A stretch of 64,000 bases of DNA from contig CANGKZ010000029.1 in NCBI GenBank assembly GCA_947454705.1, positions 488 through 64,487 on the forward strand, in the 5' to 3' direction. This DNA is from Verrucomicrobiota bacterium (GTDB taxonomy: Bacteria > Verrucomicrobiota > Verrucomicrobiia > Limisphaerales > UBA9464). This document shows, piece by piece, positions 18,743 to 41,433 of the stretch. Both the position numbers and the translations under genes were made by a program. The notes under the pieces are model-generated. The model was not told where the DNA came from and ran no database searches. It saw only the letters and a program-made list of their open reading frames with translations. Position 1 is the stretch's first letter, and each line of letters opens with the position of its first letter.

Positions 18743-18756
18743 AGGAGGAGTCCTTC

Positions 18757-19461: not shown

Positions 19462-20882
19462 GGCGTTTCAGCGCGTTTGAGTTCTGCCTTGAAGCTCCAG
19501 CGGACGGATCCGCCAGCGCCCTGAGCCGGGAAAAAGGTTGCAGGATCCACCTTGGCGAAGAGGGGCTGGCCGTTCAGCTCGATCTTCTTCAAATCCGAAT
19601 TGAACTTGGTGACCTCGGCGGTGTTGTCGGCGTTGACCGTGCCGGTGAGTTCCAAAGCGCGACCCCGGGTAAAATCGAGCTGGGTGAGATTGAGCGTTTC
19701 CGGCAGGGCTTCAATCGCCGCACGCCACGCATCGAGCGCTGCAAATCGGAGCGCCACCTGATCCTGAAGGATCGCCACCTGCGCCTTGGTCTGGAGCGCA
19801 TTGGTGTAGCTCCCCGCAATCGCATTGCCGGCATCGCGAACCGAATCCAGCCGGTACTCCTGCACCTTCAGTCCGATCATGAAGCAGAAGACGAAGGCCA
19901 GATACAGCACGGCCGCCACCGACAGCGCGCGAATCCAAAGCGAATCAATGAACTCGTTGCGACGCTTCTGAACGATCTCCTCCGGAATTAACGACCGGGG
20001 TTTTTCAATCAACTGACGACGCGCCGCAGACTCCGCCACTCGGGCCGGATCCATCCGCGGGGAAAGTTTCACCGGCTGGCCCGACCATTCCACGAGCGCC
20101 GATTCCAAATCCGCCGCAGCCCCGGGAGCGGACAGCACGGTCACCGCAGGAAGCGCCTGCAGCCAGCCGTTCCACTCGCCGGCCCAGGCCACGCGGGTCA
20201 ATTGCTCCACCAAATGAGCCGATGCTTCGGCGCCTTCGGGAAGATGAATCAATCCCACCTCACGCCAGCGCCCGCCGAGATACCATCCCGCGAGAATCGA
20301 GCGGCCGGTCGGAATTGCATCCACCACCAGCCACAATCCATCCGCATCCGGACGGCATCCCTTCAATTCGCGCACCAGCGGGAACTCGAGCTGATCCGCC
20401 ACGTAGCCCTCTTGGAGCAGGCGCCCGAGCAGATCCTCCACCGCGCTGCGAGCCACCAACGTGACCCACGCGGTGGTCGTCGGCGCGACGCCGCCTTCCG
20501 CAGGCGAAGCGGCATTCACAGACCCAGCAGCAGACTCCACCGTTTCCACGGTCCAAACCACCTGGGCCGGAGGAAGCGGGGAAAGGCGTTCGAGCTGAAA
20601 CTCGATCATGCCCTGAATTTCTTCCGCATTCGACGACGGGAGATCGACCACACGGACGAACACCGAGTCCGCCGGCAGCCAGGCAACGTTCAACTGGGGC
20701 TGAAGCAGCTGACGCCAGTCGCGTCCGGCGATCACCGAAGGAAGCGGCTTTCCCGATTCCACCGGGAGCATTCCAGCCGCCACCGGTTCACCCGATTTAA
20801 CCTGAAATCGCCAAGCCGTCCGCGGTCCGCCGAAAAGCGAAACCACGTTGCAGTTTTGGAAGCGGGGAGAGTTGGCCTTCAT
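19458..20882 (-). CDS. GspL / PilM-PilN-like platform protein
   Basis: Cytoplasmic N-domain (FVRVVDLP...IEFQLERLSPLP), one TM near aa 315-340, PilN-like C-terminus. Operonic with the ATPase. Confidence 0.68.
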   Translation of the reverse strand: MKANSPRFQNCNVVSLFGGPRTAWRFQVKSGEPVAAGMLPVESGKPLPSVIAGRDWRQLLQPQLNVAWLPADSVFVRVVDLPSSNAEEIQGMIEFQLERLSPLPPAQVVWTVETVESAAGSVNAASPAEGGVAPTTTAWVTLVARSAVEDLLGRLLQEGYVADQLEFPLVRELKGCRPDADGLWLVVDAIPTGRSILAGWYLGGRWREVGLIHLPEGAEASAHLVEQLTRVAWAGEWNGWLQALPAVTVLSAPGAAADLESALVEWSGQPVKLSPRMDPARVAESAARRQLIEKPRSLIPEEIVQKRRNEFIDSLWIRALSVAAVLYLAFVFCFMIGLKVQEYRLDSVRDAGNAIAGSYTNALQTKAQVAILQDQVALRFAALDAWRAAIEALPETLNLTQLDFTRGRALELTGTVNADNTAEVTKFNSDLKKIELNGQPLFAKVDPATFFPAQGAGGSVRWSFKAELKRAETP

Positions 20883-20884
20883 GG

Positions 20885-22627
20885 TCAGCGCACCCTTTCC
20901 TCAACCAGACTGCGGACATGCTCCTCGTTCTGCGTCACGCGCAGGACTTCCTCCACCGTCGTGACCCCGGCCCGCACCTTGCGCCAGCCGTCGTCACGCA
21001 GCGTCCGCATGCCCTGGGCCCGGGCCGCCATCGCGATCGTCGAAGCCGCCGCCCGGTTCATCACCAGCGGGCGGATCGCATCGTTCACCAACAAAAGTTC
21101 ATGAATGCCAGTCCGGCCCTGGTATCCGAGCTGACGGCACTCCTCGCATCCCTCGCCCTTCCAGAACACCGCCGTGTCCAGTTCCGCCTCGGGGAACCCG
21201 CACTTCACCAGATAATCGCGATCCAGCTTCTGCGGGATCTTGCAATGCGGGCAAATGGTACGAACCAGACGTTGAGCCATGACCGCCTCGAGCGACGACG
21301 CCACGAGGAACGGCTCGATGCCCATGTCGATCAAGCGAGTGAACGCGCTGGGGGCGTCGTTCGTGTGAAGCGTGCTGAACACCAAGTGACCGGTCAGCGC
21401 CGCGCGGATGCCGATTTCGGCGGTCTCGAGGTCGCGGATTTCGCCGACCATGATCACGTTGGGATCCTGGCGGAGAATATGACGCAGCCCCATCGCGAAG
21501 GTCAGGCCGATGTCAGATCGCACCGGGATCTGATTGATGCCCTTGAGCTCATACTCGACCGGTTCCTCGATCGTGATGATGCGTTTGGTGACTGAGTTGA
21601 TCGTCGAAAGGAACGCGTAGAGCGTCGTGGACTTGCCCGAACCGGTCGGCCCGGTGACCAGGAAGATCCCGTGCGGCTTGACGATGATGTCGCGGATCGC
21701 GTTTTCCTCGTCGGGGGCGAAACCGAGGCGTTCCAGACCAAAAAAGATCTTACCGCGGGTGAGCAAACGCAGCGAAACCGACTCGCCCCAAACGGTCGGG
21801 ACCGTGGACACGCGGATGTCGATTTCCTCGCCCTTGATCCGGACGTTGATTCGACCGTCCTGCGGCAGGCGCTTCTCGGCGATGTTCATTCCGCTCATCA
21901 CCTTGATGCGCGAAATCAGCGCCGCCTGATACCGCTTGATCTGCGGCGGCAGCGGGGTCTGGTGCAGGATGCCGTCAATGCGGTATCGGATGCGGAGTTC
22001 ATCCTCCGACGGCTCAAAGTGAATGTCCGTGGCGCGATCCTTGAACGCTTCCCAGATGACCTGGTTGACGAACTTGATGACGCTGGCGTCCTGATCGTCC
22101 CCGGTGATTTCGCGATCGGAGGAAATTTCTAGTTCCAGCGGCTCGTCCTCGGCCATTTCGTCGAGGGTCTCCGCACCGACGCCGTAGTACTTCTTGAGCG
22201 TCTTCTCGATCTCAGCCCGTGTGGCCAGCGCGAACCGAACCGGACCACGCGCATCGAAGGCCACCGCTGCCTGCATCGCGGGATCGAAAGGATCGTGGGT
22301 GGCCACCTGCAGGCCTTGCGCATCTTCGGCGATCGGGATCAAAGAAAACTGGAACGCAACCTTGGTGGAAATGCGTTTCCGGGCGGCGGGATCCGGAGTC
22401 AGGCGGGCCAGCTCGACATACGGCCAGCCGACGGCGACCGCGAGCTTCTGAAGGAATTGATCCTCCGACATGCCGGCCTCCCGGGCGAAGAACGCCAACT
22501 GCCCCTCGCCACCGGGCTCCGTGCGGGCTTCGTTGACCTTCCGCCAGGCGGAGTTCCAATCGGCGAACTGCGCCCTGGTGGCGAGTCCGGCGCGTTCGAG
22601 AATGGTCTGGAGTGGCGTATGGCCCAT
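20885..22627 (-). CDS. gspE: GspE/PilB secretion/pilus assembly ATPase
   Basis: TDIHFEP, RLPQDGR, Walker A GPTGSGKSTT, LRQDPNVIMVGEIRD, TGHLVFSTLHTN, tetracysteine CPHC...CEEC. Confidence 0.93.
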   Translation of the reverse strand: MGHTPLQTILERAGLATRAQFADWNSAWRKVNEARTEPGGEGQLAFFAREAGMSEDQFLQKLAVAVGWPYVELARLTPDPAARKRISTKVAFQFSLIPIAEDAQGLQVATHDPFDPAMQAAVAFDARGPVRFALATRAEIEKTLKKYYGVGAETLDEMAEDEPLELEISSDREITGDDQDASVIKFVNQVIWEAFKDRATDIHFEPSEDELRIRYRIDGILHQTPLPPQIKRYQAALISRIKVMSGMNIAEKRLPQDGRINVRIKGEEIDIRVSTVPTVWGESVSLRLLTRGKIFFGLERLGFAPDEENAIRDIIVKPHGIFLVTGPTGSGKSTTLYAFLSTINSVTKRIITIEEPVEYELKGINQIPVRSDIGLTFAMGLRHILRQDPNVIMVGEIRDLETAEIGIRAALTGHLVFSTLHTNDAPSAFTRLIDMGIEPFLVASSLEAVMAQRLVRTICPHCKIPQKLDRDYLVKCGFPEAELDTAVFWKGEGCEECRQLGYQGRTGIHELLLVNDAIRPLVMNRAAASTIAMAARAQGMRTLRDDGWRKVRAGVTTVEEVLRVTQNEEHVRSLVEERVR

Positions 22628-22779
22628 GAATATCGCGTGGCGACGTCGAGTTGAACTCTCCGGCTGGGAAAAAGTTGCGCGGAAAAGGCGATGAGAATGG
22701 GTCGGTGGCCGGAGGTCGCGCACTTTTTCAAAAATTCCCAGCTTGCTCCCGTCGCCGCAGATGACCACATTCCGCGCCG

Positions 22780-22868
22780 CCAGGGCCCATGGAACGCGGA
22801 CTTGTGAACCCCGCCAGGGCCGGAAGGCAGCAACGGTAACTTGCTCCCGTCTGCCGTGGTCACCCTGG
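22780..22868 (+). ncRNA. ffs: Signal recognition particle RNA (4.5S, small bacterial SRP)
   Basis: Domain IV core GTGAACCCCGCCAGGGCCGGAAGGCAGCAACGGTA with a GGAA tetraloop. Terminal helix CCAGGG/CCCTGG. Canonical position upstream of dnaX. Confidence 0.9.
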
Positions 22869-22986
22869 TTCCCTTCACTTTTTTGGCCGTAAACAAACGC
22901 AGCGCAGTCGATTCGTCCGTCCCAGTCCTTGGACTCTGGTCCAGTTAGAACCGTCAGCCCGCGAACCTCCAACGTCCCGACGACAG

Positions 22987-24825
22987 GTGTCCTACCAGGT
23001 TTTAGCGCGCAAATACCGTCCTCAACGGTTTGAGGACGTGGTCGGCCAGGAGCACGTCACCCAGACGCTCGCCAACGCCATCCGCGCCGGTCGCATCGCC
23101 CACGCCTACCTCTTCTGCGGCCCCCGCGGCACGGGCAAGACCACGCTCGCCCGCATTTTCGCCAAGGCCCTGAACTGCACCGCTGGCCCGAAGCCCGACT
23201 TCGACGATGCCGATCCGCGGGTGAAGGAAATCACCGAAGGCCGATCGCTCGACGTCCTGGAAATCGACGGTGCCTCGAACAACGGTGTTGAACAGGTCCG
23301 CGAACTCCGCGAGACCGCCCGCTTCGCCCCCGCTTCGTCGAAGTTCAAGATCTACATCATCGACGAAGTTCACATGCTCTCAACCGCGGCGTTCAACGCC
23401 CTGTTGAAAACGCTCGAGGAGCCGCCCGCGCATGTGAAATTCCTCTTCGCCACCACCGACCCGGAAAAGGTCCTGGTGACGATCCTCTCCCGCTGCCAGC
23501 GCTTTGACCTTCGCCGCATCCCCGCGGCCCTGATCGTCAAACACCTCGCCTGGATCGCCGGCAAGGAAGGCGTGACCGTCGAGGACGCCGCCCTGCAGGC
23601 CATCGCCCGCGGTGCCGACGGCGGCATGCGCGATGCCGAATCGACCCTCGATCAGCTGATCAGTTTTTGCGGCAACACCATCGTCGAGTCCGACGTGCTC
23701 TCGATGTTCGGCCTCGCCGCACGGGCGCAGTTGCTCGACCTCACCACCGCAATTCTCGAAGGCGAATCCGCCCGCGCCCTGCAACTGCTCGACACCCTCG
23801 CCCGCAGCGGCAAGGACCTCGGCCGCCTGCTCGGCGACCTGCTGAATCATTTTCGAAACCTGCTGCTGTTCCAGATTTCCAAGGGCGACCCCGGGTTGCT
23901 CGAAGTAGGTGAACCAGAATTGATCGTGCTTTCGGCGCAGTCCTCGAAAATCGAGACCGAGCCGCTCACGCGGATTCTCGAAGTCCTCTCAGCCGCCGAT
24001 GGACGCCAGCGCGAATCCGCCTCCAAGCGAATCTTCCTCGAGGTCACCGTCCTCAAGGCCATCCAGGCCCGCGAAGCCACGAGCCTCGATCAGGTGCTCA
24101 AGCAGTTGAAGGCCCTGCGCGACGGCGCCGGCCCGGCTGCATCGGCGGCACCCGCGCCCGCACGCGCCGCTTCGCCAATCGCTCCCGCAGCCGCAGCACC
24201 GGCAACAACTCCAGCTCCTGCTGCTGCTCCTGCTCCGAAACCCGCACCGGCTCCGACGCCTGCTCCCGCGCCCGCACCGACCGCTGCAGCCCCCGCCGCT
24301 CCGGCCCCTGCGCCGGCGCCAGCTTCGACTCCTGCACCAGCCCCGGCGCCCGCGGCAGTTCAGATTCCCGACGACATGGAAGCAATCTTCCAAGCGTTGG
24401 TCGCGAAATTGTCCCCGACCCAGCGCATCATGCTGGCGGAGGGCCGACCGGTCTCCATGACCCCGCGGCGGCTCACGATTGGAGTTTCGGCCGAACACTT
24501 CAGCCTGCTGGATCCGAAGCGCGACGAACCCCAGCTCACCGCCAAACTCTCCGAACTCGGGTTCGGGGATCGCTCGGTCAGCCTCGTCGCCCTCGATACG
24601 CCGCCCCCGACTCCGCCCCCTTCGGCCGGATCAGGATCCGCTCCAGCGCCCGCCCCATCGCGTCCCGCGCCTGCTCCGGTCAAAGCCCCAGAAGCCAAGC
24701 CCGTTAAGGTCGCGCCGATCCAGCTGAACCGGGAGGAATTCCTCAAGGATCCGCTGATTCAACAGGCCCTCGAAGTCTTCAAGGGGCAGCTCGTCGATGT
24801 CCGCGCCCCGGGCATCGAAACGTAA
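22987..24825 (+). CDS. dnaX: DNA polymerase III subunit gamma/tau
   Basis: YQVLARKYRP, GPRGTGKTT, EIDGASN, IIDEVHML, SRC, and a Pro/Ala-rich linker. Confidence 0.97.
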   Translation: MSYQVLARKYRPQRFEDVVGQEHVTQTLANAIRAGRIAHAYLFCGPRGTGKTTLARIFAKALNCTAGPKPDFDDADPRVKEITEGRSLDVLEIDGASNNGVEQVRELRETARFAPASSKFKIYIIDEVHMLSTAAFNALLKTLEEPPAHVKFLFATTDPEKVLVTILSRCQRFDLRRIPAALIVKHLAWIAGKEGVTVEDAALQAIARGADGGMRDAESTLDQLISFCGNTIVESDVLSMFGLAARAQLLDLTTAILEGESARALQLLDTLARSGKDLGRLLGDLLNHFRNLLLFQISKGDPGLLEVGEPELIVLSAQSSKIETEPLTRILEVLSAADGRQRESASKRIFLEVTVLKAIQAREATSLDQVLKQLKALRDGAGPAASAAPAPARAASPIAPAAAAPATTPAPAAAPAPKPAPAPTPAPAPAPTAAAPAAPAPAPAPASTPAPAPAPAAVQIPDDMEAIFQALVAKLSPTQRIMLAEGRPVSMTPRRLTIGVSAEHFSLLDPKRDEPQLTAKLSELGFGDRSVSLVALDTPPPTPPPSAGSGSAPAPAPSRPAPAPVKAPEAKPVKVAPIQLNREEFLKDPLIQQALEVFKGQLVDVRAPGIET

Positions 24826-29311: not shown

Positions 29312-30745
29312 TTATTCCGTCTCTCCGGCGGCGGGTTTTCCCTTCACCGCCTGGAACATGGCCAGGCAGCGGTTGCGCTGCACCCCGTGGTCCACGATCG
29401 GACGCGGATACCCCGTTGATGCCGTCAGCACCGGATTCGACCACGGCTCGTGGATCAAATCCGCCGGCAGCGATCGCAATTCCGGAACCCACTCCCGGAC
29501 AAACTGTCCATCGGGATCAAATTTGAGCCCCTGCGTGGTCGGGTTGAAGATCCGGAAATACGGTGCCGCATCCGTTCCGCACCCCGCGCTCCATTGCCAT
29601 CCCCCGCTGTTCGCGGCGAGGTCCGCATCCAGCAGCCGGTGCATGAAATAACGCTCCCCGCGCTGCCACGAAATCAGCAGATCCTTGGTGAGGAACATCG
29701 CCACAATCATGCGCAGACGGTTGTGCATGATCCCGGTCGCGTTGAGGCAGCGCATCGCTGAATCCACGATGGGAAATCCGGTCCGTCCCGCGCACCACGC
29801 TTCGAACCACGCATCGGTCCCCTCCCACTTCAACGCCGCGTATTCCGGACGGAAGCACGAGGTCGCCACATGCGGAAAGCTCGCAAGGATCTGCGAGTAG
29901 AATTCGCGCCAGATCAATTCGGTCTCCCACACGATGCATCCGCGTTCCCCTCCCGGCGGCGCTTCTGCGCGTGCGGTCTGGAGACGCGACATCACCGTCC
30001 GAATTCCCACCGTGCCCCAATTGAGATGCGGCGACAGACGCGAGGTCCCGGTCGCTTCCGCAGGAAAATCCCGCGCCCGGTCGTATTGATACACCGGCCC
30101 CTTTAGGAATGCCTTCAACGCCTCCAGTGCGGCGTGTTCTCCAGCCGGAGGAATCGCGTGGGGACACGGATGCCCGAGGCTCGCGGAATCCCGCGGCACC
30201 GGTTCGCTGTGCACCGTTTGCGGAACCGGATTCACCGCACGTTTCAATTTTGAAACCGGGGCGGCGATCGGATGCGTGCGCCACGCTTTCGAGTACGGGG
30301 TGAACACGGTGTACGGCTTGCCCTGTCCGGTCAGCAGCTCCGAGCCATCGCGCACCACGCGGTCCTTGAACAGCTCGAATCCGATTCCGGCGGCGTAAAG
30401 AGCCGACGCCACCTTCCGATCCGTGGCTACCCAGCCGGGTTCGTATTCCCGATTGGCCAGGACGGCCGCCGCATCCACTTCGCGGGCGAGCTTGGGGAGC
30501 TCCTCGTGCGGCGAACCGTGTCGCACGATCAGCCGATGTCCCAGCGCCTCCAGATTGGCACGCAGGGACTCCAGCGATTTCAACCCGAAGGTGAGACTCG
30601 CCGCGCCGAGGTCCTCACGCGCCAGTTGCGCCGGATCCAGCACGTACACCGGCACGAGACGCTGACCGCGGGTCGCGGCCTCGTGGAGCGCGGTGTTGTC
30701 CGTGATTCGCAGGTCCCGACGGAACCAATGAAGGATGGTCTGCAT
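29312..30745 (-). CDS. phrB: Deoxyribodipyrimidine (CPD) photolyase
   Basis: WFRRDLRITDN, TSRLSPHL, ELIWREFY, GRTGFPIVD, MHNRLRM, DADLAANSGGWQW, RIFNP. Confidence 0.95.
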   Translation of the reverse strand: MQTILHWFRRDLRITDNTALHEAATRGQRLVPVYVLDPAQLAREDLGAASLTFGLKSLESLRANLEALGHRLIVRHGSPHEELPKLAREVDAAAVLANREYEPGWVATDRKVASALYAAGIGFELFKDRVVRDGSELLTGQGKPYTVFTPYSKAWRTHPIAAPVSKLKRAVNPVPQTVHSEPVPRDSASLGHPCPHAIPPAGEHAALEALKAFLKGPVYQYDRARDFPAEATGTSRLSPHLNWGTVGIRTVMSRLQTARAEAPPGGERGCIVWETELIWREFYSQILASFPHVATSCFRPEYAALKWEGTDAWFEAWCAGRTGFPIVDSAMRCLNATGIMHNRLRMIVAMFLTKDLLISWQRGERYFMHRLLDADLAANSGGWQWSAGCGTDAAPYFRIFNPTTQGLKFDPDGQFVREWVPELRSLPADLIHEPWSNPVLTASTGYPRPIVDHGVQRNRCLAMFQAVKGKPAAGETE

Positions 30746-30811
30746 GAATGCCCGACCATCGCATGGAACCGCGGGATTGCCAGCCGTCGGACCAAAATTG
30801 GAGTGCGGAAT

Positions 30812-31822
30812 TTACTTCCGATTTCCGCCCACCGGACCGATGTCCGCGGTGGTCACCCCAGGACTCTGGATCACCCGGCTAAAGCTCGGACACGTGACCG
30901 AGTATTCGAACCCGGTTCCCGTTCCCGCCGCGCCAAAGCGGCCCTTGCGATCGAGGGCAATGAAGTTGATCGAGAGATCGAATCCCTTCGGATCCAACCG
31001 CGCGATGCGACGAATCGTTTCCAGGCAGGCGTCCTGCGGATGCATGCCCTGGCGCATGAACTCCACCACCAGGAACGTGCCGCAATACCGCATCACGTTT
31101 TCACCCAGCCCGGTGGCCCCCGCTGCACCGACTTCGTTGTCCACGTACAATCCGCCGCCAATGATCGGGGAATCGCCCAGCCGCCCCGGAAGCTTGTAGC
31201 CCCAGCCGCTGGTGGAGCATCCGCCGAAGACGTCGCCCGACGGGGTCAGCGCAATCAGGGCGATGGTGTCGTGATTCTTCTCTGCGCGCTTTTGTTCCGC
31301 CTTCCAACGCTTCCACGCGGCGAATTGCCCCGGGGAAACTTTGGGACCTTTTTCAAATCCATGCTTGGCCGCAAAGGCCGCCGCACCATCGCCGACCAGC
31401 ATCACGTGCTTGGTCTTTTCCATCACCGCCCGGGCGACCGAGATGGGATGTCGGAACCCGCTCAACGCACCGACGCTGCCCGCGCGGTGGCCCGGACCAC
31501 TCATGATGCACGAGTCGAGCTGCACCACGCCGTCGGCGTTGGGAATGCCGGCCAGGCCCACGCTGGCGTTGTTCGGATCCGACTCCGTCACGCGGATCCC
31601 CGCCTCCACCGCGTCCAGCCCGCTGCCATTGGCCCGCAGCACTTCGAGCGCCTTTTCGTTCGCCGGTTTGCCGAACGGCCAGGTGGAAACAATGAGCGGA
31701 GCCGCACCCGTCAATTCCGCCACCGGCAGCATCGGAGCGCCGCTGGCGTTCTGGATCAAACGGCCGCCGACAAGGGCGGTGGCCGCACCGGAGAGAAATT
31801 TGCGACGGGGCATCTTTGACAT
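30812..31822 (-). CDS. N4-(beta-N-acetylglucosaminyl)-L-asparaginase (glycosylasparaginase, Ntn hydrolase), Tat-exported
   Basis: Twin-arginine PRRKFL signal, STW.FG, autoprocessing HDT, STSG...PGRLGDSP, ATG.GE. Confidence 0.88.
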   Translation of the reverse strand: MSKMPRRKFLSGAATALVGGRLIQNASGAPMLPVAELTGAAPLIVSTWPFGKPANEKALEVLRANGSGLDAVEAGIRVTESDPNNASVGLAGIPNADGVVQLDSCIMSGPGHRAGSVGALSGFRHPISVARAVMEKTKHVMLVGDGAAAFAAKHGFEKGPKVSPGQFAAWKRWKAEQKRAEKNHDTIALIALTPSGDVFGGCSTSGWGYKLPGRLGDSPIIGGGLYVDNEVGAAGATGLGENVMRYCGTFLVVEFMRQGMHPQDACLETIRRIARLDPKGFDLSINFIALDRKGRFGAAGTGTGFEYSVTCPSFSRVIQSPGVTTADIGPVGGNRK

Positions 31823-31881
31823 GCGCCAAGGGTGCCCCTCCGCGCCACGCTGGCAAGACGGACGATGCGTTCGGCTCGAAT

Positions 31882-32247
31882 TCAACCCACGAGCGGCCCG
31901 CGATACACGCAGCTCGAGTTGCAGGTCTCAGCCACGCGGATCTCCTTCAACAACGGCAGCGCCGGCTTCAATCGATCCCACACCCAGCCCGCCAGCACTT
32001 CGCTGGTGGGATTCTCCAGCCCCGGAATTGTGTTCAGATGATTGTGATCGAGCTGCTCGTACAGAGGACGGAAGGCGGCCTTGATGTCGGCATAATCCAT
32101 CACCCAGCCGAACTGCGGATCCACCGGTCCCTCCACGATCACTTCGATCTGAAAACTGTGGCCGTGCAGGCGCGCGCATTTGTGGCCCGCCGGCACGCGC
32201 GGAAGGCTGTGGGCGGCCTCGATTTGAAAAGTCTTTCTCAGTTCCAT
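31882..32247 (-). CDS. queD: 6-carboxy-5,6,7,8-tetrahydropterin synthase
   Basis: [30 protein letters not shown]. Confidence 0.93.
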
Positions 32248-32259
32248 GGAATCAAAAGG

Positions 32260-33681
32260 TCAGGTTTCAAAATCGGTCCAGGTGACCAGGTCGCCCAGCG
32301 AGGGACGCCCGTCGTGACGCCACGACACCGGCGGCTCCTGCATACGGCCGATGGGACAAATCCGGGTCACGCCCCAATTCGCCAGCACCAGCGCGGCCTC
32401 GGCCGCGCGGCTTTCCGTGAGCGCCAGGCCCACCGTGCTCACCTTGCCGCGAACATTGTCGGAATAACGCAGCGCATCCCTGAGGTCCCGACACGGCTTC
32501 ACGGTGATGAAGCGATTGAGGCACGATGCGTGAAACCGGGGGTCGGCCTCGTACACCACGGTCCATGCGGTGGACTCCGGACTGCTCCACACGCGCGTGC
32601 CGTGGTCCGGCACCGGAAAGAACACCCCTCTCGGCGCGGTCACCGCTTCGTCGTGCGCCACCTTCGACCGCGCTTCGCGCATTTCATGCAGAGACCGACG
32701 TCCTGAAATCGCCGAGGCCGACTCGGCAGGCAATGCCCCGCGGGGATCCGCCGCCTCGCGGGCTTCCAAGGCCGATGCCAGCAGTTCGCCGAATCCCTCC
32801 GCCGACACCGCCCCGGTGTCCTCCACATAAATCACATGCGGCGAAAGGCACCCGAGTTGGTTCCACGCCGCGATGTCGTTCGCCGCCTTCTCCGCCACCT
32901 TGCGGGCACTGAACGACGACAGCATCTCCGCTCCAACAAAGCCAAAGCTCAACCGATGCCCATACGCGAGCAGGCGAGCAGATCCGGGCAATCGCGAGCG
33001 GATCGAGGCAATCGTCTCATCCGATCCGTGCACCGTGACGCATTCCGCCTCCGCAAACGCAGCGGCCTCCAGCTCCGGGGAACCGCCGAGCCACACCGCA
33101 ATCTCCAGACACGCCCCGAGCTTGGGCTCCAGATCCACCAGCGAATGCGCAAACAGGCGCGGAATCAGCGACCCGCGCGCGCTGCATTTCATCAACTGGG
33201 CTGAGCGTACCAACAATGAGGCGACCATCGACAGGATCGCCGGGTTCGGCAGCGTGCCGGCGGCGATGTTGAGAATCAGCTCGGGCCCGCGGGCGAGCGC
33301 CAGTCGGCCTTGGCGCAGTTCGCCCATCGGCCCGCAGAATTCATCCAATCGCCGCACATCCCCAAGATCCTGGGCCACCCATGCCCCGAGAGCTTCTGCG
33401 GTCAGCGACACAAACAAGCCGTCGAGTCCGCGTTCCAGCGTGGTTCGGCCGAATCCAGTTTCTGCCGGCCCCTGCTCCAGTGCGCGACGACGAAACGGGT
33501 TCGACGGATCCCGCCAACGCTCCGCCGCGTAGGCAATCCACTCGATCAAATCCTGCGTGCGGCGCGGCGCGAGCCATTGCGCACGGTTGCGTTTGATCGC
33601 GATGCACGCATCGCGGATCAGCGCCGGCGTGGTGGGCGCACCCGCGGGACGATCGGCCAGGAAGAGTTCAGGAAGGGACAT
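32260..33681 (-). CDS. luxC: LuxC-family acyl-CoA/acyl-protein reductase
   Basis: ALDH-like fold: IAAGTLP, KCS, HGSDETI, YGHRLSF, catalytic NQLGCLSPH, C-terminal RICPIGRMQEP...HDG. Confidence 0.85.
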   Translation of the reverse strand: MSLPELFLADRPAGAPTTPALIRDACIAIKRNRAQWLAPRRTQDLIEWIAYAAERWRDPSNPFRRRALEQGPAETGFGRTTLERGLDGLFVSLTAEALGAWVAQDLGDVRRLDEFCGPMGELRQGRLALARGPELILNIAAGTLPNPAILSMVASLLVRSAQLMKCSARGSLIPRLFAHSLVDLEPKLGACLEIAVWLGGSPELEAAAFAEAECVTVHGSDETIASIRSRLPGSARLLAYGHRLSFGFVGAEMLSSFSARKVAEKAANDIAAWNQLGCLSPHVIYVEDTGAVSAEGFGELLASALEAREAADPRGALPAESASAISGRRSLHEMREARSKVAHDEAVTAPRGVFFPVPDHGTRVWSSPESTAWTVVYEADPRFHASCLNRFITVKPCRDLRDALRYSDNVRGKVSTVGLALTESRAAEAALVLANWGVTRICPIGRMQEPPVSWRHDGRPSLGDLVTWTDFET

Positions 33682-33693
33682 GCGACTTCAGAT

Positions 33694-34941
33694 TCAATCG
33701 GCACGCGAAGGCATCGGGACTGCGGCCACGGCCGGTTGCGGATACTCCCCGCGATGCCGACGAAACCAGGCGAGCGGAATCAGTCCGAACAACGACACCG
33801 CCATCAACGCGGCCAGACCACCAAACACGAGTCGATACGCCCCGGCCTCGTGCGAGCTTCGTCCCATTTGGTCGACCCACGCTCCCGTGATCCAGTGGGA
33901 GAGATTTCCCCCCATGCCGCCCACGGTGATGAACAGCCCGAAGAAACGTCCGCGCGCTGCGTCGGGCACGCATTGCATGAGCTCGGCCTCAACGATCGGA
34001 TACGACGCCACAAACAACGCCCCGTAGAGCACGAAGGCCCACGGGATTCCCGCAACCGGAAGCCACGGAAACGCGGCAAACAAAACGGCCGAAATTCCCA
34101 CGAGGCCCATCATCCAGGGAAACCGGCGCTTGTCGCTCCAATGCCCAAACAGCGGATTGCTCACGGCCGATGCGATGAAAATGCAGCTCAGAATCATGCC
34201 CGCGCGACGCGGCGTCATGCCGTGAGCGGTCTGCAAAAACAGCGATCCCAGCGTCCCCAGGCTGTTGCCGGCGAAATCGCGGCAGCAGAACAAGAACGCG
34301 AGCACCGCAAACACCCACGCGAACGCCGCCCGCGGAAACAAAGGAATCGAGGGCACGGCCCGGTCCACCACCACCGCCGCCTCGCGGGCCAGCAGGGCAA
34401 ACACGCCGCTCATCACCACACCTGCCCCGCCCATGACCAAAATCGGAACACGCCAGCTTCCGAACGCCTCGGCCATCGTGCCCGACAGAAAAGGTCCCGA
34501 GAGAAATCCAATGCTGGCCCCAATCGCGATCAACCCCAACGCCTTCCCGGTCCGCGTGGGATTCAACCCGGCAACCAGCGCCGTGGCGGCCGGATGAAAG
34601 CAGCTACCGCCAAGCCCTGCGATGACCACCGAGGCCACCGCCCAGGAATAGCTCGTTGAAAGCCCCAAGCCGACAAACCCGAGTCCGTTGAAAAACAATC
34701 CCCAGGCCAGGAGTGCCTTGCGGCTCATGCGGTCGGCAAGCATTCCCACCGGATAACTCGGGAGGTAATAGGCCATCATCATCACCGTCATCAACCCCGT
34801 GGCCTGCTCCGTGGACCCGAGGCGTAGATCGTCACGAATCGGCAGGTAAAGCGGCAGCAGCGCCACCTGATACAAATGCGTGAAGGCATGCAAAATGCCG
34901 ACCAGCCAGAGGGTGCGGACGTTGTGGGGGGCGGGTTGCAC
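33694..34941 (-). CDS. MFS transporter
   Basis: About 12 TM, HAFTH N-terminus, motif A GMLADRMSRK, FHP. Confidence 0.9.
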   Translation of the reverse strand: MQPAPHNVRTLWLVGILHAFTHLYQVALLPLYLPIRDDLRLGSTEQATGLMTVMMMAYYLPSYPVGMLADRMSRKALLAWGLFFNGLGFVGLGLSTSYSWAVASVVIAGLGGSCFHPAATALVAGLNPTRTGKALGLIAIGASIGFLSGPFLSGTMAEAFGSWRVPILVMGGAGVVMSGVFALLAREAAVVVDRAVPSIPLFPRAAFAWVFAVLAFLFCCRDFAGNSLGTLGSLFLQTAHGMTPRRAGMILSCIFIASAVSNPLFGHWSDKRRFPWMMGLVGISAVLFAAFPWLPVAGIPWAFVLYGALFVASYPIVEAELMQCVPDAARGRFFGLFITVGGMGGNLSHWITGAWVDQMGRSSHEAGAYRLVFGGLAALMAVSLFGLIPLAWFRRHRGEYPQPAVAAVPMPSRAD

Positions 34942-34958
34942 GCGGGGGTTCGGTTGGG

Positions 34959-36122
34959 TCAGACCGACATCAGGGAACAGCCTCGGGCCTCTGCCGTGGG
35001 TCGGCGACCCAAAAGTTGAAAGTCACGTCCGCGGCGCACGGCGAGATCTTCGGTCTGCAAACACAGCACCGACGCCACGTTGGCCGTGTCGATCAACCGC
35101 AGGAGTCCGGTCTCCCCGTCCGAAACTTCACGGCCCGTCTCTGGAGAAATCACCATTCCCCGGGCCCACGGCGGAAGCTGCAGCACCCCTGCCCCGGTGT
35201 CATCGGACCACCGGGAATAGGCCTGCGAACTCAGCTCGCTCATTCCGTATTCCGTCAGGACATCGTGGGCCGGGATCCCCAAATACTTTCGAATCCCCTG
35301 GGCGAGCTCCGCGGCGGTGAGCACGCGGGAGCGTCCCTTGTAGCCGCCGGTCTCCATCACGCGCGATCCCGCCGGCAGCCGAAACTGTTTCCCGGCCGCT
35401 TCCAGCGCATCCATCAGGTGCACCACATTGAACGCCGTCCCAAGCAGGAACACAGGACGCTTCTCGGCCTGGGCACGCTCCAGCGCACCAATCAGCACTG
35501 CAGACTCCAACTCCCACTGGCCGTCCGCGCCCGCAATGCCCGCCGTGGCCGAGCCCGACGGAGCGAATCGATCCATCAGCCGCCCGATCATGTACGCGAG
35601 GGACGAATGCGGTGCGTTGGTCCGCGAGGGCACGAGCGAAATCCAACTCAACCGCAGGTTCACCGCGGAGTCCGTCCACCGGTCGAGCGCGTGATGCTGG
35701 AACCACGGTTCGAAGGAAGCCTCGTAGGCCTGAAGCGAAACCGAATCGTGGAAATGCCGGCTGGGCGTCTGCCCCGTGGTGCCACTCGATTGAAACCAGG
35801 TGGTGATGCCGTCTCCGCGCAGGCAGGTCACCGGCGATTCCTTGAACGCCGCCGCCGGAAGCCCCGGAACCTCCCGCCACGAGCGCAGCGACGACGGATC
35901 GATCCGCCGCGACACGCACCAGAATCGGTACACCGGATTGGCCTCGTACTGCAGCGCGAACAATTCGAGGACGAGCCTTTCGAATCGGGCGTCATCCGGG
36001 GCAAAGCCCTCGGCCACCCACTGCCCGATGCAGGTGCGGAGGCGTTCGAGATACGCAGAGATCCGGGCTTGGTGACCCGGCGTTCCCTCGCCAGGCGAGG
36101 ACGGTATGATGGATGAAGGCAT
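34959..36122 (-). CDS. luxE: LuxE-family acyl-protein synthetase (fatty acid--protein ligase)
   Basis: FALQYEANPVY, P-loop SSGTTG, ETGGYKGRS, EYGMSELSSQAY, TEDL, C-terminal GR...E.RGCS with the acylated Cys. Confidence 0.85.
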   Translation of the reverse strand: MPSSIIPSSPGEGTPGHQARISAYLERLRTCIGQWVAEGFAPDDARFERLVLELFALQYEANPVYRFWCVSRRIDPSSLRSWREVPGLPAAAFKESPVTCLRGDGITTWFQSSGTTGQTPSRHFHDSVSLQAYEASFEPWFQHHALDRWTDSAVNLRLSWISLVPSRTNAPHSSLAYMIGRLMDRFAPSGSATAGIAGADGQWELESAVLIGALERAQAEKRPVFLLGTAFNVVHLMDALEAAGKQFRLPAGSRVMETGGYKGRSRVLTAAELAQGIRKYLGIPAHDVLTEYGMSELSSQAYSRWSDDTGAGVLQLPPWARGMVISPETGREVSDGETGLLRLIDTANVASVLCLQTEDLAVRRGRDFQLLGRRPTAEARGCSLMSV

Positions 36123-36290: not shown

Positions 36291-36644
36291 ATGAAATTCA
36301 TTCTGACCACTCACAACGTCACTCTGACCGACGCGATCGAGCAGCACGTTCTCGCGAAGCTCGAAAAATTGGAGCACATCGACCGATGGCTCCTCGACGC
36401 CCGCGTCTGTCTGGAGAAGGACCACACCCCGCGCACCCCGAGCAAGACCTTCAAGTGCTCGATCCGCCTCGGCATCCGGGGCAACGACCTCTTCGCCGAG
36501 GACAAGGAAGAGGATCTCTACGCGGCCATCGACCTCGTGACCAAGAAGCTCGAACAGCAGCTGCGCCACAAGCACAGCAAGGCCAAGGCGAAGAAGCACA
36601 AGGTCGCCGCCCGCCTGAAGGAAGCCCGTCGAAAGGACGCCTGA
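36291..36644 (+). CDS. hpf: Ribosome hibernation promoting factor (RaiA/HPF, short form)
   Basis: HNVTLTDAI..HV..KL.KL, EDLYAAIDL...KLE.QLR. Confidence 0.92.
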   Translation: MKFILTTHNVTLTDAIEQHVLAKLEKLEHIDRWLLDARVCLEKDHTPRTPSKTFKCSIRLGIRGNDLFAEDKEEDLYAAIDLVTKKLEQQLRHKHSKAKAKKHKVAARLKEARRKDA

Positions 36645-36647
36645 ACC

Positions 36648-37919
36648 GTGCTCCTGCGGTCCCGTATCGTAGTCCCAGTCACCGCGCCGCCCATGGAGGA
36701 CGGCGCGGTTCTGATTTCAGAGGGGCGCATTGTCGAAATCGGACGCTGGTCCGATCTGCGGCGCACCACGTCGGGTCCGGTCCATGACCTCGGCGACCAG
36801 GTGCTCATGCCCGGCTGGATCAACGCGCACTGCCACCTCGACTACACGCATCTCGCCGGCCAACTCCCGCCCACGCGGAACTTCCCCGAGTGGGTGAAAT
36901 CCATCCACGCCGCCAAGTCCGGCTGGGGATTCAGCGAGTTCGCCGTTTCGTGGCTGGAGGGTGCGCGGCAACTGATCGAGACCGGCACCACCACCGTCGC
37001 CAACATCGAGTCCGTTCCCGAGCTGCTGGGCCCCTGCCGCGCGTCCACGCCGCTCCGCGTCTGGTCCTTCCTCGAACTCACCTCGCTGCGTCCACGCCTC
37101 TCGCCGCCGGAGATTGTCCGCGAGGCGGTCGAGTTGCTGCGTTGGACCGGCCCCGGAAACGGAGGCCTCGGGCTCTCACCCCACGCGCCGTATTCCACCA
37201 CGCCCGACCTGCTCTCGTCCGTCGCCAAGGCTTCCCGCTCGGACGGCTGGCCAGTGACCATTCACGTGGCGGAATCGGACGCAGAATTCGAAATGTTCAT
37301 GTACCGCCGGGGCGCCATGTTCGACTGGCTGGCTTCGCAGCGTTGCATGGAAGACTGCGGCCTTGGCTCTCCGGTTCAGGCGCTCGATCGCGCCGGAATT
37401 CTTCGCCCGGGTTTGCTCGCCGTTCACGTCAACCGACTCTGGCATGACGACGCCCGCCTGCTCGGCGACCGCGGAGTCACCGTCGTCCACTGTCCCCAGA
37501 GCCACGCCTACTTTCATCATCCCCGCTTTCCGCGTCCCGAGCTGGAGGAAGCCCGCGTTCGAATCTGCCTCGGCACCGACAGTCTCGCCTCCACGCATCG
37601 CCCTCGCGGAATTCATCCAAGACTTTCGCTCTTCGACGAAGTGCGCGCGCTCCAGCAGACCGATGCGATGATCGATCCCGCCCACATTCTGGAAATGGTC
37701 ACGATCCACGGAGCGCACGCCCTCGGTCAGGCCGGAACTCTCGGCGAACTTTCCGTCGGCGCCGCGGCCGACTGCATCGCCGTTCCTTACCACGGCCCTA
37801 TCGAGCGGGCCGTCGAGTCCGTGCTTCAACATCAGGGCCCCGTTTCCGGAACCTGGATCGGCGGAGAACTCGTCTTCCAACACTGCCTACCGGAGCCCAT
37901 CGATTCCCCGAGCATTTGA
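36648..37919 (+). CDS. Amidohydrolase, MtaD/aminodeoxyfutalosine deaminase-like
   Basis: PGWINAHCHLD, SPHAPY, IHVAES, HCPQS, GTDSLAS. Confidence 0.85.
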   Translation: MLLRSRIVVPVTAPPMEDGAVLISEGRIVEIGRWSDLRRTTSGPVHDLGDQVLMPGWINAHCHLDYTHLAGQLPPTRNFPEWVKSIHAAKSGWGFSEFAVSWLEGARQLIETGTTTVANIESVPELLGPCRASTPLRVWSFLELTSLRPRLSPPEIVREAVELLRWTGPGNGGLGLSPHAPYSTTPDLLSSVAKASRSDGWPVTIHVAESDAEFEMFMYRRGAMFDWLASQRCMEDCGLGSPVQALDRAGILRPGLLAVHVNRLWHDDARLLGDRGVTVVHCPQSHAYFHHPRFPRPELEEARVRICLGTDSLASTHRPRGIHPRLSLFDEVRALQQTDAMIDPAHILEMVTIHGAHALGQAGTLGELSVGAAADCIAVPYHGPIERAVESVLQHQGPVSGTWIGGELVFQHCLPEPIDSPSI

Positions 37920-37932
37920 GCTCCACCCGCGC

Positions 37933-38664
37933 ATGAATGAATCCGGTTCCAACGCCCCGGTCGTCTTGATCACCGGTGCTGCGGGCGGTTTGGGACGCGC
38001 CTTCGTCGAGGCCTTCGCCGCTGCCGGATGGCGCGTCGCGGCGGCCTGCCGGTCTCTTCCCGCGGATCACGTATCGAGCGACTCCAATTCGATTTGGTGG
38101 TGCACGCTGGATGTCACCCGCCCCGACGAAATCACGGAACGCGTGTCCGAGCTTCAATCCCGTTGGGGACAAATCGATCTCCTCATCAACAACGCCGGCA
38201 TTTCCGAAGATGAAGTGCTCCCGCGGATGACCGAGGAATCCTGGCAGCGCGTGATGGATGTGAATCTCCGCGGAGCTTTCCTCTGCGCCCGGGCCGTGCT
38301 TCCAAAAATGGTCGAGCGCCGCGAGGGGCAGATCCTGAACATCGCCAGCTTCGGCGGTCGCGTGGGGCGGGCGGGAACAGCCAACTACAGTGCGTCAAAA
38401 GCTGGCCTGCTCGGACTGACCGTCGCCCTCGCCCGCGAGCACGGGCGCGACAACATCCGAGTCAACGCCCTTCTTCCCGGATTCCTCCGCACCAAGCTCG
38501 TCGGATCCCTTTCCGAGGCCGACCTCGCCGCCCACGCCGCGAGCAACACGTTGAATCGCTTGAACTCGACTGATGAGGTGGCCAGTTTCGCCACCCAACT
38601 GGCGACCCTGCGCAATGTCTCCGGGCAGATCTTCCAGTTGGACAGCCGCATCGGTCCGTGGTGA
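37933..38664 (+). CDS. Classical SDR oxidoreductase (FabG-like)
   Basis: TGAAGGLG, NNAG, YSASK, NIRVNALLPG. Confidence 0.9.
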   Translation: MNESGSNAPVVLITGAAGGLGRAFVEAFAAAGWRVAAACRSLPADHVSSDSNSIWWCTLDVTRPDEITERVSELQSRWGQIDLLINNAGISEDEVLPRMTEESWQRVMDVNLRGAFLCARAVLPKMVERREGQILNIASFGGRVGRAGTANYSASKAGLLGLTVALAREHGRDNIRVNALLPGFLRTKLVGSLSEADLAAHAASNTLNRLNSTDEVASFATQLATLRNVSGQIFQLDSRIGPW

Positions 38665-38761
38665 TGAACGCTTCCGGCTCCAACGTGCTGCAACGAATGC
38701 CCTTTGTCCGTCCCGGCGGCCGGTGCTAGTACAGGCGCCGATCCGCACCGGGTCCCAGAAC

Positions 38762-39979
38762 GTGGAATCCCTCGACACTCACCTCGCAGACTGCATGGCC
38801 AGGACCGAAGCCGCCGGGCTTCGTCGCAGCCTGCGTGAGATCCAGTCGCGGCAGGGCATTCGCGTCACCCTCGACGGTCGGTCGCTCCTCAATTTCTCTT
38901 CCAACGACTACCTCGGTCTCGCCCAGCACCCGGCCTTGATCGAAGCCGCGCAACGCGCCGCCCAGGATTGGGGCGCAGGGGCCGGAGCCGCGCGGCTGGT
39001 CTGTGGTTCGCTGTCCGTCTTTCACGAACTCGAGTCCGCAATCGCCGACTGGAAGCAGTGTCCCGCCGCCCTTTCCTTCTCCACCGGATTCGCCGCCGCG
39101 CTCGGCACTGTACCAGCCTTGGTCGGGTCCGGGGATGTGGTCATTCTCGACAAACGCGTTCACGCCTGTTGCGTCGATGCCGCGAAACTCTCCGGTGCCA
39201 AGCTCCGCGTGTTCCGGCACAACGACCCCGCCGATCTGGAGCGAATCCTTCAATGGGCCCGCAAGGATCCCGTCCCAGGCAACGCCCCGGTCCGAATCCT
39301 GATCATCACCGAGTCCGTGTTCAGCATGGATGGCGACGAAGCCCCGCTCACATCCCTCGTGGAACTCAAGGAACGCTACGGCGCCTGGTTGATGGTCGAT
39401 GAAGCCCACGCCGTGGGTCTGTATGGCGCACGCCGGTCCGGACTCGCAGAGCAGCTCGGGCTGACCCAACGCATCGAGGTTCATATGGGAACCCTCGGAA
39501 AAGCGGTCGGGGCCTCCGGGGGATACATTGCCGGTTCCGTCGCCCTCCGCGACCACCTGCTGAATCAAGCCCGGAGCTTCGTATTCTCCACCGCACCGGT
39601 CCCCGCTGCGGCCGCCGCCGCGCTTGCCGGAATTCAGCTCATCCATAGTAGCGAGGGCGCAACCCGACTGGAGCGACTCCAGCATCATGGCGACCGGCTC
39701 CGCGGCATGATCCGTTCCAATTATGGTACCACCGCCGGCACAACCGAACCGCGCAGCGCGATCCTGCCGATCATTGCCGGAGCAGAAACCACCGCGCTGG
39801 AGTGGTCCAGGCGGATGCGCGACGACGGATTTCTTGTGCCTGCCATTCGCTATCCCACCGTGGCCCGGGGCACCGCCCGGCTGCGGGTCACGCTTTCCGC
39901 CGATCATGCGGAGAGCGAAGTCGCAGCTCTCGGCCAGGCACTCGTCGGCCTGGGCCGCACCGAACCCGTCGAACCATGA
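38762..39979 (+). CDS. bioF: 8-amino-7-oxononanoate synthase
   Basis: NFSSNDYLGLA, FRHND, ESVFSMDGD, VDEAHA, GTLGKA (PLP Lys), FST, IRYPTV. Confidence 0.92.
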   Translation: MESLDTHLADCMARTEAAGLRRSLREIQSRQGIRVTLDGRSLLNFSSNDYLGLAQHPALIEAAQRAAQDWGAGAGAARLVCGSLSVFHELESAIADWKQCPAALSFSTGFAAALGTVPALVGSGDVVILDKRVHACCVDAAKLSGAKLRVFRHNDPADLERILQWARKDPVPGNAPVRILIITESVFSMDGDEAPLTSLVELKERYGAWLMVDEAHAVGLYGARRSGLAEQLGLTQRIEVHMGTLGKAVGASGGYIAGSVALRDHLLNQARSFVFSTAPVPAAAAAALAGIQLIHSSEGATRLERLQHHGDRLRGMIRSNYGTTAGTTEPRSAILPIIAGAETTALEWSRRMRDDGFLVPAIRYPTVARGTARLRVTLSADHAESEVAALGQALVGLGRTEPVEP

Positions 39980-41433
39980 GCGCCCCTTCCCGCTCCATCG
40001 GCTCCATCGTCCAGACCGACCGTCGCCATGTATGGCATCCGTTCACGCAGATGGCCGATTGGAACCAAACCGAGCCGCTAATTCTGGTGCGCGGACGCGG
40101 TGCCGTATTGGAGGACATCCGTGGACGCGAATTCCTCGATGCCAATTCCTCCATCTGGACCAACCTTCACGGGCACGGACATCCCGCGATCAACCGCGCG
40201 CTGACCCGGCAGCTCAAGCAGGTGGCGCACGTCTCCATGCTGGGCTTCACCAACGAACCCGCATCGCTTCTCGCGCGCGAGCTCGTCCGCATGGCCCGTC
40301 CGACCCGAGGCCCGGCGCTGCTGCAGAAGGTGTTTTATTCCGACAACGGGTCCACCGCGATGGAAGTGGCCCTGAAACTCGCGCACGAGCACGCACGGCG
40401 CGCGCGGGGGCTCAAGCAGGCGCGGTTTCTCTCACTCGATGGCGCGTACCATGGCGACACCGTGGGCGCGGTTTCCATTGGACACATTGACCTGTTCCAC
40501 GGTGCCTTTTCAAAGCTCCTGTTTCCCACCGACAAGGTGATGTCGCCGTACTGCTACCGGTGCCCGTTCAACCGGGCGAAACCGGAACGGGCCGATGCCC
40601 GCGAGACGCGGAAATGCGGTTGGGAATGCATTTCAAAACTGGAACAGAAATTCACCCGGGCCGCGGCCGCGAAAAAGCCGATCACCGCCTTTTCCGTTGA
40701 ACCGCTCATGCAGGGCGCGGCCGGCATGATCGCGCAGCCGCGCGGGTGGCTGAAGAAGGCCGCCGAAATAACGCGAGCGAATGGGGCGCTGCTGATCGCG
40801 GATGAGGTCATGACCGGATTTGGTCGCACCGGAGTCGGCGAACGCGCGGCCCAGAAGAAACCCGGAACCCTGCCGTTGCTCGCGAGCCATCTCGAACAGG
40901 TGCAGCCCGATTTCGTGGCCCTCGCCAAGGGACTCACCGGGGGATACCTGCCGATGGCGGCCACGCTGACCACCGACGAGGTGTATTCCCAATTCCTGGG
41001 CAAGTACGAGGACTTCAAAACCTTCTTCCACGGCCACAGCTACACCGGGAATCCGCTCGGGGCGGCAGCAGGACTGGCCAGCCTCGAACTGCTTCGTTCT
41101 CCGGAATCCGAGCAGCAACGCCGGGTATTGGAGGCCGCATTCGCCTCAAATTTGGAAACGCTTTGGTCGTGTCCATCCGTGGGCGATGTCCGCCGCGTGG
41201 GCCTGGTCGCCGGCATCGAACTCGTCCGCGATTGGCGCACCCGAAAACCATATCCCCTCGCGGAACGCACCGGGATTCGCGTGTGTGAAGCGATGCGCCG
41301 CCGCGGCGTGCTGACGCGTCCCATCGGAAGCGTGGTGGTTCTGATTCCCCCCTACTGCACCACCGTGAAGCAACTCGGCAAGATGGTGGATGCCTTGCGC
41401 GACTCCATCGACGAAGTGCTGGGCGAAGACTAG
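39976..41433 (+). CDS. bioA: Adenosylmethionine--8-amino-7-oxononanoate aminotransferase
   Basis: WHPFTQM, SSIW.NLHGH, DNGSTAMEVALK, YHGDT, DEVMTGFGRTG, AKGLTGGYLP, HGHSYTGNP. Confidence 0.95.
   Translation: MSAPSRSIGSIVQTDRRHVWHPFTQMADWNQTEPLILVRGRGAVLEDIRGREFLDANSSIWTNLHGHGHPAINRALTRQLKQVAHVSMLGFTNEPASLLARELVRMARPTRGPALLQKVFYSDNGSTAMEVALKLAHEHARRARGLKQARFLSLDGAYHGDTVGAVSIGHIDLFHGAFSKLLFPTDKVMSPYCYRCPFNRAKPERADARETRKCGWECISKLEQKFTRAAAAKKPITAFSVEPLMQGAAGMIAQPRGWLKKAAEITRANGALLIADEVMTGFGRTGVGERAAQKKPGTLPLLASHLEQVQPDFVALAKGLTGGYLPMAATLTTDEVYSQFLGKYEDFKTFFHGHSYTGNPLGAAAGLASLELLRSPESEQQRRVLEAAFASNLETLWSCPSVGDVRRVGLVAGIELVRDWRTRKPYPLAERTGIRVCEAMRRRGVLTRPIGSVVVLIPPYCTTVKQLGKMVDALRDSIDEVLGED

Follow-up and report, generated by a model that had tools for sequence, protein, structure and literature searches.

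A luxE-MFS-luxC-queD gene run in a Verrucomicrobiota bacterium and its probable part in a QueC/QueF-independent route to preQ1

The stretch of DNA analysed here, called the window below, comprises 64,000 nucleotides of contig CANGKZ010000029.1 (positions 488 to 64,487 of the forward strand; assembly GCA_947454705.1) from a lake-dwelling Verrucomicrobiota bacterium of the order Limisphaerales. It contains a run of six minus-strand genes that opens with relatives of the bioluminescence genes luxE and luxC, with a gene for a major facilitator superfamily (MFS) transporter between them and queD behind them. Our subject is this luxE-MFS-luxC-queD unit and the part it probably plays in making the tRNA base queuosine. 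From luxE onward, the run consists of the following genes.

34959-36122, minus strand: luxE-like gene for an acid-activating enzyme (387 amino acids; ATG start; Pfam LuxE)
33694-34941, minus strand: MFS transporter gene between luxE and luxC (415 amino acids; GTG start; Pfam MFS_1)
32260-33681, minus strand: luxC-like gene for an acyl-thioester reductase (473 amino acids; Pfam LuxC)
31882-32247, minus strand: queD, for 6-carboxy-tetrahydropterin synthase (121 amino acids; TIGR03367 and Pfam PTPS)
30812-31822, minus strand: gene for an Asparaginase_2-family hydrolase with a twin-arginine-type N-terminus (Pfam Asparaginase_2)
29312-30745, minus strand: gene for a class-I-type DNA photolyase (Pfam FAD_binding_7 and DNA_photolyase)

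Read from the sequence, the intergenic gaps in the same order are 17, 12, 12, 59 and 66 bp. A simple promoter/terminator scan found no promoter-like sites at the run. It reported 12 terminator-like sites, all of them within coding regions, and the two longer gaps of 59 and 66 bp hold none.

LuxE matches Pfam PF04443 with 65.5 bits (cut-off 24.9) over residues 79-416 of the long open reading frame, and LuxC matches PF05893 with 204.6 bits (cut-off 21). Both lie far below the NCBIfam equivalogs of the fatty-acid enzymes, as LuxE reaches 62.9 of the 550 bits required by NF052244 (long-chain-fatty-acid--protein ligase) and LuxC 32.4 of the 750 bits required by NF052251 (long-chain-fatty-acyl-CoA reductase). 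To judge by these scores, the pair is only distantly related to the bioluminescence enzymes. The catalytic motifs can nevertheless be located. LuxE aligns with chain E of the solved reductase (7xc6_E) at an E-value of 3.8e-14, placing its SSGTTG (residues 112-117) on SSGTSG and its RGCSL on KGCSL; the C-terminal RGCS holds Cys382, and both Cys382 and S112-T115 are invariant among 11 orthologues. The match of LuxC to chain A (7xc6_A) is weak (E 0.0087) and sets Cys278 of QLGCLSP opposite the cysteine of DQQACFS, which is probably Cys296 of the published protein. LuxE is predicted to adenylate an acid and load the acyl group onto its own Cys382, and LuxC to receive that group on Cys278 for NADPH-dependent reduction to the aldehyde.

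The LuxC-LuxE fatty acid reductase of Photobacterium phosphoreum (PDB 7XC6; PMC9157457) is likewise formed by two separate proteins of families PF04443 and PF05893. The SSGT(T/S)G motif, the C-terminal acyl-carrying cysteine of LuxE and the catalytic cysteine of LuxC are common to both systems, and the expected chemistry is alike, with ATP-dependent activation, a thioester relay and NADPH reduction to an aldehyde. In the P. phosphoreum enzyme C364 is the LuxE residue that reaches the LuxC active site, and the solved LuxC contains a long hydrophobic cleft of more than 40 Å, as stated in the same paper (PMC9157457). The present pair differs in its distant homology, in a genome without LuxD or LuxA/B, and in being linked to queD, queE and an aminotransferase gene rather than to a lux operon. 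Its substrate would also be of another kind, a polar deazapurine acid instead of myristate.

The source genome is 95.71% complete and spans 80 contigs. A genome-wide search returned one LuxE match, whereas the whole genome gave no match to the luciferase family PF00296 (LuxA/LuxB) or to LuxD (PF02273). A preliminary description of the locus, made from the sequence, had called a luciferase-less LuxE/LuxC acid-reducing pair, and these empty searches support the call. The six co-directional genes and the gaps it listed are the same on re-reading the sequence, all the motifs it named (SSGTTG and RGCS in LuxE, QLGCLSP in LuxC) are in place, and the asparaginase that it described as Tat-type does carry RRKFL near the N-terminus.

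To see which of these genes belong together, LuxE neighbourhoods were compared in 20 loci from relatives and in 80 public contigs, nearly all of them Verrucomicrobiota metagenome-assembled genomes by record title, with Pedosphaera or Limisphaerales named in some of the labels; since the two sets overlap, they are not independent. The luxC gene follows luxE in 61 of the 62 informative loci of the 80-contig set and in all 19 of the relatives; for queD after luxC the corresponding counts are 62 of 66 and 18 of 19. The MFS gene separates luxE from luxC in roughly one locus out of three (24 of 70 and 7 of 19). The asparaginase gene beside queD and the photolyase gene at the locus each occur in 2 of 80 contigs and 2 of 20 relatives. 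Because only the two nearest genomes have them, we read these links as local accidents; the two genes are chance neighbours. When the open reading frames of the 80 loci were clustered, no other gene family recurred in more than six. The conserved unit is luxE-(MFS)-luxC-queD, set amid ever-changing surroundings, and the MFS protein is an optional accessory. Thus the link of luxE/luxC to queD that had been noted at this one locus holds among related loci, whereas the photolyase and asparaginase linkage does not, and the transporter is no constant member of the module.

The three remaining proteins of the run are assigned at the family level. The MFS protein scores 122.3 bits with Pfam MFS_1, reaches the cut-off of no NCBIfam model, and has only unnamed, generic MFS clusters as its Atlas neighbours; that it moves a 7-deazapurine may be offered as a low-confidence guess. 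The asparaginase scores 192.9 bits with Asparaginase_2, and the photolyase 281.7 bits with FAD_binding_7 and 164.6 bits with DNA_photolyase.

QueD is a firm assignment, with 100.8 bits to the TIGR03367 equivalog (cut-off 89.25) and 118.2 bits to Pfam PTPS. Its sequence contains C24-x3-H28-G29-H30, the Cys-x3-His-Gly-His metal/catalytic motif of QueD, and tblastn with it gave a single match, making this queD the sole copy in the genome. QueE is encoded on another contig, C39 (257 bits to TIGR04349), and FolE2, Tgt, QueA and QueG are all encoded in the genome as well. In canonical synthesis of preQ1 (7-aminomethyl-7-deazaguanine), QueC converts 7-carboxy-7-deazaguanine (CDG) to the nitrile preQ0 with two ATP and ammonia, and QueF reduces preQ0 to preQ1 with two NADPH. 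The de novo queuosine pathway (FolE, QueD, QueE, QueC, QueF, Tgt, QueA and QueG/H) is incomplete in this genome at precisely these two steps. Neither QueC nor QueF was found in it by Pfam profiles or by tblastn with the proteins of a same-order genome (best E-values 0.033 and 1.1, respectively), and no YhhQ/Vut_1 precursor transporter was found in it either.

The same gap is seen in the relatives. Among the 41 nearest genomes LuxE is present in 39 and a QueE-like gene in 40, and full-length QueC and QueF occur in only one, G029, where they stand side by side on one contig. Seven other nearest genomes give QueC-model matches, but these are partial (at most about 120 of 210 model positions) and lie in open frames of 361-717 amino acids. 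As far as gene content tells, bacteria of this group seem able to make CDG and to use preQ1 while lacking both of the known enzymes that connect the two. G029 itself belongs to the same order and is 82% complete with 2% contamination; the relevant sequences are contig C67, 26168-27642 (loci L058, L063 and L065), and contig C205.

A candidate for the missing amination lies next to queE. On contig C39 a gene for a 440-residue class-III aminotransferase (PF00202, 300.7 bits), claimed by no NCBIfam equivalog, starts 43 bp after queE; 18 of 20 loci from relatives retain this pair. We also fetched 16 LuxE loci from other families of the class, 11 of which had been picked for carrying LuxE and the aminotransferase on the same contig, and in 10 of the 16 queE, the aminotransferase gene, luxE and luxC occur together. 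In one of them (L172), queE, the aminotransferase gene, luxE, luxC and queD are contiguous on one strand. In the class sample described below, 52 genomes outside the bacterium's own order have both LuxE and the aminotransferase, and comparison by eye places the two matches no more than 5 kb apart in 22 of them.

Other candidates near these genes were rejected. The window has two aminotransferase-fold genes of its own (38573-41433), both of biotin type, of which the second is BioA (436.7 bits, cut-off 405) and the first is most like BioF (412 bits, just under the cut-off of 426.45); neither was accepted for the amination step. Genes found between the aminotransferase gene and luxE in other families, which include those for bactofilin-like proteins and, on the opposite strand, for an SNF2 helicase, are not conserved and were dismissed as pathway members. 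Two genomes belonging to one genus have an opposite-strand gene of about 1060 codons inserted there (L170, 5186-8371; L175, 6536-9724), and that of L170 encodes an SNF2-family helicase with a SWIM finger.

The distribution of the relevant enzymes was determined by set arithmetic on match lists in a class sample of 151 genomes, each at least 85% complete and the same for every marker.

LuxE orthologue: 83 of 151 genomes
QueF: 60 of 151 genomes
Full-strength QueC (at least 186 bits): 61 of 151 genomes
Aminotransferase orthologue (E at most 1e-70): 75 of 151 genomes
QueA: 147 of 151 genomes
QueE of this genome's type: 87 of 151 genomes

LuxE and QueF never occur in the same genome (0 of 151), and eight genomes have neither. 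The 61 genomes with full-strength QueC are the 60 QueF genomes plus one, G153. All but one of the 75 aminotransferase genomes have LuxE, and 74 of the 83 LuxE genomes have the aminotransferase, against none of the 60 QueF genomes. QueA is present in all 83 LuxE genomes. QueE of the type found here occurs in 81 of the 83 LuxE genomes versus 5 of the 60 QueF genomes (E at most 1e-15) and seems to travel with the LuxE route. Four families (f36, f39, f51 and f57) and one genus (g88) each contain genomes of both the LuxE and the QueF kind, and repeated replacement is therefore implied. G153 (locus L181) fits neither pattern, as it has LuxE-LuxC, a QueC of 186 bits and only weaker aminotransferase matches.

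Weak matches to the QueC model (77-118 bits) were seen in 18 further genomes, 17 of them in family f40. In the two f40 loci examined (L183, 4739-5398; L184, 4647-5306), the match is a 219-residue QueC-like PP-loop protein with 114-118 bits to PF06508, encoded directly beside a UbiD-family decarboxylase gene. We considered it as a partner enzyme and, given that neighbour in both loci, read it as a paralogue outside the pathway; it probably has nothing to do with queuosine.

These observations lead us to propose that preQ1, from which queuosine is made, is formed here by a route that needs neither QueC nor QueF and is divided between two operons, with luxE-MFS-luxC-queD as one of the halves; we give this reading a probability of about 0.7. 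FolE2 and QueD, the latter from the luxC-linked operon, would make 6-carboxy-tetrahydropterin (CPH4), which QueE from contig C39 would turn into CDG. LuxE would then activate the carboxylate of CDG with ATP and hold it as a thioester on its C-terminal Cys382, and LuxC would accept the acyl group on Cys278 and convert it, using NADPH, into 7-formyl-7-deazaguanine. The class-III aminotransferase encoded after queE would convert this aldehyde to preQ1, after which Tgt, QueA and QueG would complete queuosine in tRNA. The basis of the route is gene content, conserved linkages, a distribution complementary to that of QueC/QueF, and conserved catalytic cysteines; from these we infer what the substrate and the amino donor are, as well as each chemical step.

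The proposed and the canonical route would share their start (CDG), their end (preQ1) and the surrounding FolE, QueD, QueE, Tgt, QueA and QueG, and the two replace each other in the sampled genomes. Moreover, the proposed aldehyde is not foreign to the canonical chemistry, in that 7-formyl-7-deazaguanine is the hydrolysis product of the imine intermediate of QueF, as reported in PMC13740343. The protein families that connect CDG with preQ1 are unrelated, however, and the proposed route would have no nitrile intermediate. Its nitrogen would come from an amino donor by way of a pyridoxal phosphate enzyme, whereas QueC uses ammonia. A characterised parallel for the reduction and amination is found in biosynthesis of tambjamine BE-18591, in which the LuxC-related reductase TabE frees an aldehyde and the class-III omega-transaminase TabA converts it to a primary amine, according to a preprint (bioRxiv 10.1101/2025.08.11.669332). 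That pathway differs in handling a C12 fatty acyl group on an acyl carrier protein, without LuxE and in secondary metabolism; the present case has a LuxE-type activator and a tRNA modification context.

Several points weigh against the proposed route. The substrate has been assigned solely from gene context and distribution, and LuxC resembles its solved counterpart only weakly (E 0.0087). The aminotransferase gene lies outside the luxE operon in this genome and is missing from 2 of the 20 relatives' queE loci; among the 83 LuxE genomes, an aminotransferase match at E at most 1e-70 is absent from 9 and a QueE match from 2. The luxC gene has no queD after it in 4 of 66 loci of the 80-contig set and in 1 of 19 of the relatives, and the MFS gene is not explained by the route. 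The two systems are also not strictly exclusive, since G029 has LuxE plus a classical queF-queC-queE cluster; such dual content may mean that the genome is in transition, that genes were transferred recently or that binning went wrong. G153 combines LuxE with full-strength QueC and no QueF. The distribution follows phylogeny, with only about four or five switches visible, and a Fisher test would overstate its significance. Finally, no preQ1 riboswitch is present at these operons: an Rfam scan gave no match upstream of luxE, in 15 queE loci or in 11 luxE loci. This last point is uninformative because the PreQ1-I riboswitch (RF00522) was found in 0 of 150 genomes of the class and so has no discriminating power here; for PreQ1-II and PreQ1-III the coverage is that of the all-Rfam scans, limited to the upstream-luxE, queE and luxE loci.

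Three other explanations deserve consideration, and the nearest of them keeps the substrate class and changes the purpose. The pair could act on a CDG-derived or related 7-deazapurine acid without supplying the cell's preQ1; its product might be a secondary metabolite or serve to modify nucleic acid, and queuosine would then be made from salvaged precursors. Linkage to queD and queE would suit any CDG-consuming pathway, a transporter gene in a third of the operons would fit as well, and both G029 and G153 retain QueC beside LuxE. We nonetheless regard this as unlikely. With QueA in every one of the 83 LuxE genomes and QueF in none, these bacteria need some source of preQ1; the genome studied here has no match to the YhhQ/Vut_1 precursor transporter. 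The distribution is complementary to QueC/QueF even within families, and conversion of acid to aldehyde to primary amine on CDG gives exactly preQ1.

The identity of the acid separates the proposed route from the two remaining explanations, both less probable still. CPH4, the product of QueD, is itself a carboxylic acid, and in this order luxC is linked more tightly to queD than to any other gene, so that reduction of CPH4 to a pterin aldehyde or amine might be imagined, serving either another pterin cofactor or a bypass of FolB in folate synthesis; 6-formyl-tetrahydropterin is a tautomer of 6-hydroxymethyl-dihydropterin. Since this genome and nearly all of its relatives (40 of 41 in total) encode FolB, there is no folate gap to fill and the bypass was rejected. 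Clusters of other families hold queE and the aminotransferase gene, often without queD, the single queD copy is needed to feed QueE, and the failure of LuxE and QueF to co-occur would go unexplained, all of which makes a role on CPH4 quite improbable. The preliminary description had allowed for reduction of either a pterin or a deazapurine carboxylate; the comparative evidence favours the deazapurine, namely CDG, the product of QueE, and not CPH4. Least probable of all, and in our view very unlikely, is an ordinary reductase of fatty or other aliphatic acids that yields a lipid aldehyde, alcohol or amine, with queD adjacent for no functional reason. The catalytic motifs are retained, and the only characterised LuxE/LuxC pair reduces myristic acid, as given in PMC9157457. 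Against this stand the scores far under the fatty-acid equivalog cut-offs (62.9 versus 550 and 32.4 versus 750 bits), the lack of any LuxD or luciferase match in the genome, and the complementarity with QueF. In addition, linkage to queD, queE and the aminotransferase gene is kept across many families as the other neighbours change.

To our knowledge, all described de novo queuosine routes pass through QueC, QueF and the nitrile preQ0, which is considered the intermediate shared by 7-deazaguanine pathways. Modification of tRNA with queuosine is almost universal, and humans and animals rely on microbes for its supply. Our literature search, which missed most subscription journals and supplements, found no paper that links LuxE/LuxC to queuosine or describes conversion of CDG through an aldehyde to preQ1. 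With somewhat less assurance than for the route alone, though still on the favourable side of even, we suggest a wider picture. More than half of this verrucomicrobial class would have swapped QueC/QueF for a relay of LuxE, LuxC and the aminotransferase that leads from CDG through the aldehyde to preQ1 and never forms preQ0. In the present order the relay would be split into luxE-(MFS)-luxC-queD and queE-aminotransferase, the MFS protein would be a new 7-deazapurine transporter, and genomes scored as precursor auxotrophs for want of QueC/QueF would be prototrophs.

If the proposed route is correct, it constitutes a second way to preQ1 with other cofactor and nitrogen needs, and the prediction of queuosine prototrophy from genomes changes. 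In schemes such as that of PMC6593275, genomes that encode QueD and QueE but neither QueC nor QueF fall under none of the phenotype classes. The route would also provide the first physiological role for a large group of orphan LuxE/LuxC homologues, and a natural enzyme set that turns a heteroaromatic acid into an amine.

Some further features were recorded in the window and in related loci. Divergent from luxE, at 36291-41433 on the plus strand, lie genes for an hpf-type ribosome hibernation factor, a TRZ/ATZ-family amidohydrolase, a short-chain dehydrogenase/reductase, the BioF-like protein and BioA. Only the two nearest genomes retain this block, and the longest open reading frames of its BioF-like and BioA genes overlap their neighbours, their true starts probably lying later. 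The minus strand at 16376-22972 encodes a secretin, a protein like the M component of type II secretion systems (T2SS-M), a 474-residue protein without assignment and a T2SS-E/MshE-type ATPase, which together form a type II secretion or type IV pilus-like cluster. A bacterial small signal recognition particle RNA (68 bits) is located at 22778-22873 on the plus strand and overlaps the upstream end of the longest open reading frame called for the adjacent dnaX-like gene (22987-24825). In the luxE locus of one relative (L045, 1408-1452, minus strand), about 7.5 kb from luxE, there is a match to the Acido-Lenti-1 small RNA with 38.2 bits, just over the gathering score of 37.

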